The position numbers and the translations under genes were made by a program. Below the pieces are notes generated by a model. That model saw only the letters and a list, made by a program, of their open reading frames with translations. It was not told the DNA's origin and did no database searches. A DNA stretch of 1,122 nt from a phage: sequence record OR846335.1. One strand, 5' to 3'. Below, one piece after another: positions 1-1,122 of the stretch. Within the stretch, counting starts at the first letter, position 1. Every line of letters begins with the position of its first letter.

Positions 1-1053
1 GCGTACTTTCGCCAGGCTTTGCCACGGTGAAACGTCGTTGCCGTGAACCATCCGCTCGGTGAGATAATAGAGCGTGTAGTCAGCGGAAATGCCGATAACG
101 CTCATGCTCATCACCAGCGTCATCAGGTGTAATTCACCGAAAATCAATAAAGTGGCGACCGTTCCCGCCAGCGCGCCGATGCCGATGGAAATCACGCAAA
201 GCAGCAACGGGCGTAAAGAGCGGAACACCGCCACAGTCAGCAATATCACCCCCAGCAGCGTAGCCACGCCCAGGGTGGAGATATCCTGCTTCGCCTGTTG
301 GCTGGCGTAATCGCTGTAAAACACCGTGCCGCGCGAGAGCAACTGTGCCTGCGGGTAACGCGTTTTCAGATCCTTTTCCAGCGTATTCAGGGTCGTGATC
401 AGCTGGTGGGTTTGCTGCATATCAAACGACGATCCCGCCAGTTCGCCGTGCAGCAGATACCAGTAGTTGCCCTGGGGATCCTGCGTCACCAGCCAACCGT
501 CCATCAGCCGCAAACGCTGGCCGTTTTTCGCCATTGCCAGCTGCGAGCCGCGCATTAACATCAGCGGATCGTTTTGCAGCTCCTTGCCGCTTACGCCGGA
601 GAATGCGGAATAAAGCTGGGAGAGGATCCACTGTGCCTGCGCTCCGCCGCCGTTTTGCAGGCGGGCGCGGGTGTTGGGGTCAATCAGGCCGTTGCGATGC
701 TGCCAGAAAAACGCTCCCCACGCCTGCTGGCTGGCGGCATCCATTGGCCCTTTAACGTCGCCGAGCGCAGCGGATTTTTGCAGCAGCGTCAGCCACTCCT
801 GAGCGACCAAAGGATTAGCCTCTTTACCGGGGCTGACCAGCCACACCAGTTGGCGGTCAAGACGCTGCATAAAGCCGTCATTCAGCGCCGGAGGAATATC
901 GCCCATCGTCTGTTTGGGTAACATAGCCAGCACGCTACTGTTCAGCCGTGATTGCGGCAGCAGGATCAGCAACGCCACCGCCATGACCAGGCAGACTAGC
1001 CCCCATAACAGCGCGGGGCGTTTACTGGGCGGCAAAACGTTGGCGTTCGTCAT
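1..1053 (-). CDS. MMPL / RND-superfamily inner-membrane exporter, N-terminal 351 codons; partial, the 3' end continues beyond window position 1
   Basis: Hand translation of the minus strand from ATG (plus 1051-1053) gives 351 codons with no stop down to position 1; the nearest upstream in-frame stop is TGA at plus 1063-1065. Protein begins MTNANVLPPSKRPALLWGLVCLVMAVALLILLPQS (basic N-terminus then hydrophobic helix), continues with a ~220-aa mostly hydrophilic domain, then ISTLGVATLLGVILLTVAVF / RSLRP / LLLCVISIGIGALAGTVATLLIF / GELH / LMTLVMSMSVIGISADYTLYYL. This layout (TM1, large periplasmic loop, TM2-TM4 with a G-x-x-x-D-Y helix) is the established topology of RND/MMPL transporters. Family assignment rests on topology and motif recognition, not a database search. 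Confidence 0.85.
   Translation of the reverse strand, partial: MTNANVLPPSKRPALLWGLVCLVMAVALLILLPQSRLNSSVLAMLPKQTMGDIPPALNDGFMQRLDRQLVWLVSPGKEANPLVAQEWLTLLQKSAALGDVKGPMDAASQQAWGAFFWQHRNGLIDPNTRARLQNGGGAQAQWILSQLYSAFSGVSGKELQNDPLMLMRGSQLAMAKNGQRLRLMDGWLVTQDPQGNYWYLLHGELAGSSFDMQQTHQLITTLNTLEKDLKTRYPQAQLLSRGTVFYSDYASQQAKQDISTLGVATLLGVILLTVAVFRSLRPLLLCVISIGIGALAGTVATLLIFGELHLMTLVMSMSVIGISADYTLYYLTERMVHGNDVSPWQSLAKVR
61..282 (-). other. TM2-TM4 bundle of the exporter (residues ~258-331), including the G-I-S-A-D-Y motif (Asp codon at plus 79-81, Tyr at 76-78)
   Basis: Three hydrophobic helices are separated by very short loops (RSLRP and GELH). The last carries VIGISADYTLYYL, which resembles the conserved TM4 Asp-Tyr proton-relay motif described for MmpL3/HpnN-type MMPL transporters and the TM4 acidic residues of RND pumps. 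Confidence 0.6.
283..951 (-). other. Large soluble loop between TM1 and TM2 (residues ~35-257), predicted periplasmic porter-type domain
   Basis: About 220 residues of mixed, mostly hydrophilic sequence with several Trp and no Cys, flanked by hydrophobic helices. By analogy with RND/MMPL architecture this is the first periplasmic domain. Its boundaries are estimated by eye. Confidence 0.5.
955..1014 (-). other. Predicted TM1 / signal-anchor helix of the exporter (residues ~14-33, ALLWGLVCLVMAVALLILLP), preceded by basic residues K11 and R12
   Basis: An uninterrupted run of about 20 hydrophobic residues follows Lys-Arg in the hand translation, consistent with the positive-inside rule. No lipobox is present (residues before the Cys are G-L-V, not [LVI][ASTVI][GAS]). 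Confidence 0.6.
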
Positions 1054-1122
1054 CGGTCAGTTGCGCTGGCGTCAGTTGATGTTGGGTAAGAGCAATATCG
1101 GTGCGATCGCCCTGTTTATCAT
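1022..1122 (-). CDS. 3' end of the upstream minus-strand gene (C-terminal 32 codons plus TAA stop); product unknown; partial, the 5' end is beyond window position 1122
   Basis: Minus-strand frame from plus 1120 down to 1025 is open and reads DKQGDRTDIALTQHQLTPAQLTDDERQRFAAQ, ending at TAA (plus 1022-1024). It is in a different frame from the exporter and overlaps the exporter start by 32 nt. Only 32 residues are visible, so no product call is possible; the call relies on the open frame, same-strand operon-like arrangement and enterobacterial-type codon usage. Confidence 0.5.
   Translation of the reverse strand, partial: DKQGDRTDIALTQHQLTPAQLTDDERQRFAAQ

Follow-up and report, generated by a model that had tools for sequence, protein, structure and literature searches.

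The window, the whole stretch of 1,122 nucleotides that was analysed, contains the 5' part of E. coli apeM, a gene already known to encode the RND/MMPL-type exporter of the aryl-polyene (APE) pigment cluster, and the Asp325–Tyr326 pair that it encodes on transmembrane helix 4 (TM4) appears, from family conservation and alignments, to be the near-invariant TM4 proton-relay dyad of the family, a feature which is ordinary for its members. The window matches E. coli O157 chromosomes at 99.7% identity, and among 5426 complete E. coli genomes, 824 carry the window/apeM gene. Its sole long open reading frame lies on the minus strand, as do all features given below, and runs from an ATG at window position 1053 to base 1 with 351 codons and no stop; it corresponds to codons 1–351 of the 772 in apeM (window 1..1053) and runs off the window at base 1. 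Because the frame is open from ATG 1053 to base 1, the residue number 325, which a preliminary description of this DNA had given as approximate, is exact. The 3' end of apeL, encoding a LolA family protein, occupies 1022..1122 (record annotation and a frame check), and its overlap with the start of apeM is the first 32 nucleotides of the latter. The annotated locus places the LolA CDS at 11496–12101, the MMPL CDS at 12070–14388 and the DUF3261 gene at 14385–14969, with the window at 12001–13122; the 772-residue apeM product is labeled "MMPL family transporter" and belongs to the APPE family of the RND superfamily. Full-length ApeM passes the gathering threshold of the Pfam MMPL model (PF03176; 33.2 bits, E 3.6e-8, threshold 20.5), and the 351-residue window fragment alone, at 18.9 bits, falls under it. 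Plus-strand ORFs of up to 115 residues were rejected as antisense shadows of the apeM frame without supporting evidence.

Inside the APE cluster, apeM is flanked by LolA-like apeL and DUF3261 apeN, which is the gene context of ApeM and the APPE family. Approximately 15 kb around it contains, in order, genes for a lipoprotein, a methyltransferase, a KS chain-length factor (CLF), a lysophospholipid acyltransferase and two ACPs, then an acyl-CoA/ACP synthetase, a FabZ-like dehydratase, GT2, a thioesterase, LolA (apeL), MMPL (apeM) and DUF3261 (apeN), followed by KS, the ApeP dehydratase, FabG2, KS and acpT. This is the apeA–R order tabulated in PMC8253772, whose Table 1 lists apeM as "RND family transporter", apeL as "LolA-like chaperone" and apeN as "DUF3261 LolB-like protein". 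Within the RND superfamily, ApeM has been placed in APPE, the aryl polyene pigment exporter family (bioRxiv 10.1101/2020.12.19.423268), which is TCDB 2.A.6.8. E. coli CFT073 c1191 and Xenorhabdus ApeM are the same gene at the same cluster position, with no gene-level difference. The lipid-type exporter proposed in the preliminary description is consistent with this identity, the protein being the ApeM of an aryl-polyene lipid cluster. The neighborhood extends to distant homologues: one at 44% identity, with D-Y on both TM4 and TM10, and one at 28% identity, with D-Y and D-F and a halogenase nearby, both have the same LolA_3, MMPL, DUF3261, KS, ApeP, KR and KS genes around them. The family alignment described below therefore samples orthologues. 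Anaerobiospirillum is one organism with a distant representative of the family. Gene, family and cluster were all known and annotated before, and an MMPL-type protein would be expected to have Asp-Tyr on TM4; what is added here, a residue-level description and the fixation of Asn701 among Enterobacterales, is minor and nothing new in kind.

The reverse complement of window positions 96..76 reads ATC GGC ATT TCC GCT GAC TAC and encodes the motif I320-G321-I322-S323-A324-D325-Y326 (76..96), in which G321 is invariant in the family. The two codons of the putative relay dyad, assigned from conservation and alignments, span 76..81, with Asp325 at 81..79 and Tyr326 at 78..76. We examined the position of this motif in an AlphaFold2 model of a full-length E. 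coli allele, which differs from the window fragment at 6 of 351 residues and was modeled with 140 family sequences as input (pLDDT 93.8, pTM 0.88). The model has 12 TM helices and two periplasmic domains, and the large periplasmic domains lie between TM1 and TM2 and between TM7 and TM8, as is characteristic of RND proteins. Within the window part, the modeled helices are residues 12–34 (TM1; 952..1020), 243–277, of which about residues 255–277 form TM2 (223..291) in continuity with a periplasmic helix from 243, 281–305 (TM3; 139..213) and 310–321 plus 324–337, which together form TM4 (residues 310–337, 43..126; DSSP on the model) with a break at 322–323. Periplasmic domain 1 covers about residues 35–242 (328..951) and includes D162-P163 (570..565), which is invariant in the family alignment. 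The Asp-Tyr motif (GISADY) reported earlier on TM4 is thus present in the minus-strand reading and lies on what is the fourth TM helix of the model, where D325 is mid-helix, about 15 residues in and just past the short break. In the full-length protein, TM10 comprises residues 686–706. The two halves of ApeM show an internal duplication in which TM3–TM4 aligns with TM9–TM10 (BLASTP, residues about 240–405 versus 613–772, E 8e-4), and this half-to-half alignment places GISADYTLYY on GIGINYTLFF, matching D325 to N701 and Y326 to Y702.

To describe the family, we used an exhaustive HMMER scan that gave 7108 matches at E ≤ 0.001, from which 150 representatives were taken, one per 50%-identity cluster; the 142 representatives of near-full length or longer were aligned with the E. 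coli protein (n = 143), to which they are 28–51% identical. D325 is kept in 142/143 sequences, Y326 in 142/143 and the pair D-Y in 141/143, and both residues rank in the top five of the 772 columns for conservation, the mean identity per column in this family being 29%. Other residues discussed below are also well kept (Y702 in 135/143, T727 in 133/143 and T726 in 124/143). The DY dipeptide, which occurs twice in the fragment versus 0.38 expected, is unremarkable alone; it is the position-specific conservation of D325–Y326 in the aligned sequences, not the dipeptide itself, that appears remarkable. Being kept in 142 representatives, D325 is a good candidate for the essential residue that had been proposed at this position. 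As a general rule, RND proteins have at least one conserved acidic TM residue, on TM4, that is central to ion coupling (PMC8277102), and D325 is such a residue in ApeM. Within the TM helices, carboxylates are conserved across the family at D325 and position 701 alone; Glu333 (55..57), where TM4 ends on the cytoplasmic side, is acidic in 75/143 relatives.

We compared ApeM with proteins of solved structure. A phmmer search of full-length ApeM against PDB sequences aligned VIGISADYTLYY with HpnN FVGLGVDFSIQY, placing D325 on residue 344 of the 5KHN chain, and with CmeB AIGIVVDDAIIV, placing D325 and Y326 on its two adjacent Asp residues. A profile of 140 family members retrieved HpnN (E 5.6e-34), MmpL5 and MmpL4 (about 3e-9) and then SecDF and CmeB. 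This profile did not retrieve MmpL3 (E > 10), and the putative equivalence to MmpL3 comes by way of MmpL4/5 and the literature. With MmpL5 residue numbers counted from the profile alignment coordinates, the family TM4 D-Y falls on MmpL5 D278–Y279 and the TM10 consensus D-Y on D851–Y852. In MmpL4/5, the proton relay consists of D278, Y279, D851 and Y852, which have been equated with D256, Y257, D645 and Y646 of MmpL3, and D278 and Y852 are hydrogen bonded (PMC11524445); two Asp-Tyr dyads, on TM4 and TM10, constitute the MmpL relay (PMC8427324, PMC13280996). In the profile alignment, the TM4 pair of HpnN is D344–F345 and its TM10 position holds Ala-Phe, and ApeM T726–T727 on TM11 aligned with HpnN T818–T819, such that ApeM possesses the TM4 Asp and TM11 Thr-Thr which characterize the relay of HpnN and HAE-3 proteins. 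D344, T818 and T819 reportedly have functional roles in the HpnN relay. D325–Y326 therefore occupies the relay positions of MmpL5, HpnN and CmeB, and the MmpL-type reading holds. The preliminary description had called the motif MmpL3/HpnN type as opposed to AcrB type; the MmpL side of that assignment is upheld by the alignment with MmpL5 D278–Y279, and the HpnN side applies to the Asp alone, since HpnN has Asp-Phe.

Among solved structures, HpnN comes nearest to ApeM in both sequence and predicted fold, with MmpL4/5 next, and ApeM differs from each group of relatives. In the hopanoid transporter HpnN (HAE-3; PDB 5KHN, 5KHS and 6WU0), the TM4 Asp is followed by Phe and TM10 carries Ala-Phe, in place of the Tyr and the Asn-Tyr of ApeM; HpnN is also about 100 residues longer and has extra periplasmic subdomains. 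Scores of ApeM against the HpnN/HAE-3 NCBIfam models were far below their cut-offs (TIGR03480, 47.4 bits, cut-off 751.85; NF052374, 20.0 bits, cut-off 1100; TIGR00921, 49.0 bits, cut-off 351.9), and its neighbors are APE polyketide and lipid genes rather than the hopanoid context of HpnN. With MmpL3/4/5 (HAE-2), mycobacterial exporters of lipids and siderophores, ApeM shares the Asp-Tyr on TM4, but the TM10 Asp of these proteins is Asn701 in ApeM. Its sequence resembles theirs weakly, its score against the HAE-2 model TIGR00833 was 29.3 bits (cut-off 874.7), and ApeM comes from Gram-negative bacteria and has LolA-like and LolB-like partners, whereas the partners of MmpL proteins are MmpS or AcpM. 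The AcrB/CmeB-type HAE-1 pumps have Asp-Asp on TM4 and a Lys on TM10, in contrast to the Asp-Tyr of ApeM and its lack of a TM10 Lys. The periplasmic domains of ApeM are much smaller than those of HAE-1 proteins, with no funnel or docking domain evident by size or matches, and the APE cluster, unlike the HAE-1 setting, contains no adaptor or TolC-type genes.

In ApeM, TM10 has the sequence QAVNLFSLLALVLVLGIGINYTLFF, and its partner position reads LVLGIGI-N701-Y702-TLFF, that is, Asn-Tyr and not Asp-Tyr. Thus, of the TM10 partner dyad that was to be sought in the full-length protein, Tyr702 is present and Asn701 stands in place of the Asp, and E. coli ApeM lacks the second Asp-Tyr dyad of the MmpL3 type. 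Across the 143 sequences, positions 701–702 are D-Y in 106, N-Y in 29, D-F in 7 and D-A in 1. N701–Y702 was found in 120/120 close homologues (at least 85% identical) and in 80/80 Enterobacterales species, which were sampled from a species-level genome collection by a search seeded with 20 sequences that gave only Enterobacterales at 72–98% identity. With D-Y in most of the family and N-Y in E. coli and the Enterobacterales, the MmpL3-style double dyad is therefore ancestral to the family and incomplete in the enterobacterial clade that includes this gene. Because residue 701 is Asn in this protein, D325 is left as its sole conserved carboxylate within the membrane, an arrangement shared with HpnN, and the relay would be asymmetric with a single titratable Asp.

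[quoted passage not shown] Among others, this reading draws on the apeM deletion phenotype, in that the deletion strain had no detectable APE-related metabolites (PMC8253772), and on natural ApeM–DUF3261 fusions, which occur in three distant homologues. The deletion phenotype alone is published; in the literature searched we found no ApeM transport assay or energy-coupling experiment, and the searchable literature yielded no description of its relay residues. We infer proton coupling, a D325–Y702 contact and a hand-over to ApeL/ApeN as follows. By homology with MmpL4/5/3 and HpnN, D325 would take up a proton from the periplasmic side and later release it. The residue would lie at the interface of the two six-helix TM bundles with a predicted hydrogen bond to Tyr702 of TM10, comparable to D278–Y852 in MmpL4/5; the TM10 partner of Tyr326 would be residue 701, and Thr726–Thr727 of TM11 would complete the network in the manner of T818–T819 in HpnN. 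Cycles of protonation at the bundle interface could then move TM2 and TM8 and, through them, the two periplasmic domains, which would pull the aryl-polyene lipid from the outer leaflet; the lipid would be passed to LolA-like ApeL and DUF3261 ApeN for delivery to the outer membrane.

The conserved Asp-Tyr could instead be structural, contributing to helix packing, with export energized by a partner such as ApeG (COG4648, a predicted pyrophosphatase). ApeG has been proposed as an energy source by hydrolysis (PMC8253772, bioRxiv 10.1101/2020.12.19.423268), although these proposals are speculation. In the cluster studied here, an apeG-like unannotated ORF of about 190 residues follows the two ACP genes, and distant clusters have one in the same position. 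Further precedent comes from MmpL7, an RND lipid exporter that works without a canonical relay, beside an ABC transporter (PMC8427324). Packing alone hardly explains the near-invariance of a buried, mid-membrane Asp at the position of the relay Asp in MmpL4/5, HpnN and AcrB-type proteins, and we regard this alternative as improbable. A canonical RND relay kept in ApeM is a simpler hypothesis than ApeG-powered export, and the analysis names six ApeM residues as mutation targets in an existing E. coli expression system.

What counts against a PMF relay is its TM10 side, where the Asp of the MmpL-type relay is Asn in ApeM and position 708, which is mostly acidic in the family, is also Asn. In MmpL3, the TM10 Asp is required. 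It could therefore be asked whether the enterobacterial relay is degenerate, such that ApeM would have no coupling to an ion gradient and would serve passively, as a platform for lipid extraction or as a scaffold for ApeL/ApeN. The fixation of N701 in all 80 Enterobacterales species and 120 close homologues is compatible with such decay, as are the acidic residue at 708 in merely 3/29 Asn701 relatives versus 80/114 Asp701 relatives and the in-frame deletions in many E. coli apeM alleles. In the enterobacterial clade, however, D325, Y326, Y702 and T726/T727 are strictly kept, a sign that the site is still under selection. HpnN, for its part, has one Asp with the Thr-Thr pair and aligns Ala-Phe at the TM10 position, and reportedly works with this one-Asp arrangement. 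The E. coli cluster also makes APE pigment, and all of its genes bar perhaps apeR appear required (PMC8253772). Taken with these observations, a degenerate relay is very improbable.

Another reading is a site coupled to Na+ or another cation rather than to H+. Dispatched/Patched and Vibrio SecDF are Na+-coupled, and Na+ sites in Dispatched/Patched contain three acidic residues, as opposed to the one acidic residue at the ApeM site. Some RND relatives use Na+ (one sodium-driven case is mentioned in PMC8277102), and an Asp with Asn, Tyr and Thr neighbors could in principle coordinate a cation. The nearest relatives with an assigned mechanism, MmpL3/4/5 and HpnN, are nonetheless described as proton-driven, and we give scarcely any credence to a site coupled to a cation other than the proton.

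In a neighbor-joining tree built without the tracked columns (701, 329 and 708), parsimony gave at least five Asp/Asn changes at 701 with Asp at the root. Residue 329 varies along with 701: it is His in 84/114 Asp701 relatives and in 0/29 Asn701 relatives, where it is Tyr in 25/29. One tentative reading, which we think unlikely, is that a two-Asp MmpL3-like gate was converted to a one-carboxylate HpnN-like gate in Enterobacterales and at least four other lineages, altering the number of protons per cycle; the switch may have replaced Asp701 with Asn, removed the acidic side chain at 708 and put Tyr instead of His at 329. If true, evolution would have carried out a "D-to-N experiment" repeatedly on the relay targeted by anti-tuberculosis MmpL3 inhibitors. 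More modestly, Asn for Asp on TM10 is a natural variant of the MmpL-type relay that could reveal the number of carboxylates required in such a gate. When mutual information with 701 was calculated over every other column, 329 ranked 4th and many periplasmic columns were similar. Because the value for 329 is no higher than that of several periplasmic columns, the tracking of 701 by 329 and 708 may reflect subfamily signatures and no more, and we do not take it as evidence of contact or as proven coupling. In the window, Tyr329 (67..69; family alignment) lies one helical turn after D325, and this offset, four residues after D256 in MmpL3, suggests that it corresponds to the "water lock" position F260, a role described along with those of other MmpL3 residues in PMC13280996.

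Only two columns were invariant across the 140 family members, D162 and G321, and P163 was nearly so. D162 and P163 (window 570..565, minus strand) lie in periplasmic domain 1 within an N-D-P-L motif, and they may serve as substrate-path or hinge residues. A second set of positions varied with residue 701, the TM10 counterpart of D325 in the putative relay. Position 329, which is Tyr in the window protein (window 69..67, minus strand), was His in 84 of the 114 representatives with Asp701 and in none of the 29 with Asn701. An acidic residue at position 708, which like 701 belongs to the full-length protein beyond the window, likewise occurred mostly alongside Asp701 (80/114 versus 3/29 with Asn701). 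This pattern at 329, 701, and 708 may reflect coupled remodelling of the gate or may be a mere subfamily signature.

In many E. coli apeM alleles (747–751 aa; e.g., P0005), periplasmic domain 1 is shortened by an in-frame deletion of 27 aa. The missing stretch, LQNGGEAQAQWILSQLYSAFSGVSGKE, has a repeated L-Q-N at its borders and corresponds to residues 132–158 (window 660..580, minus strand); the window contains the undeleted form. In the deletion allele we aligned, P0005, two extra residues, "LV", are also inserted in TM10 immediately upstream of GIGINY. P0057 and P0058, two further cluster representatives from E. coli, are each 727 aa long, ∼45 aa short of full-length ApeM. In P0057, the one of the two that was aligned, the 45 absent amino acids include TM2 and span residues 239–283 (window about 339..205, minus strand). 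P0057 and P0058 are probably inactive alleles.

Compared with the O157 reference allele, the window protein has two substitutions, Gly in place of Glu at 137 (window 645..643, minus strand) and Thr in place of Ile at 273 (window 237..235, minus strand). The best database matches to the window shared 99.7% DNA identity, and the G137 and T273 differences therefore mean that the source strain and these matches are not identical. Among the 5426 complete E. coli genomes, apeM occurred in just 824; it was chromosomal in every case and present in two copies in one genome. According to its title, a 2006 paper by De Lay and Cronan (ref. 25 of PMC8253772) reports that rearrangement of the K-12 genome left AcpT orphaned from its cognate substrates of E. 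coli O157:H7.

At its 5′ end, apeM overlaps the LolA-like gene apeL by 32 nt in a different frame (window 1053..1022, minus strand), an arrangement suggesting that translation of the chaperone and the exporter is coupled. Natural fusions of ApeM to DUF3261 (ApeN, "LolB-like") were found in three distant representatives (P0215, P0265, and P0267; 29–31% identity), a hint that ApeM and ApeN work as a complex. An E. coli ApeM–DUF3261 fusion of 966 aa, P0002, was also present on a single contig; because apeM and apeN share a 4-nt overlap, a frameshift or assembly artefact probably accounts for this one.
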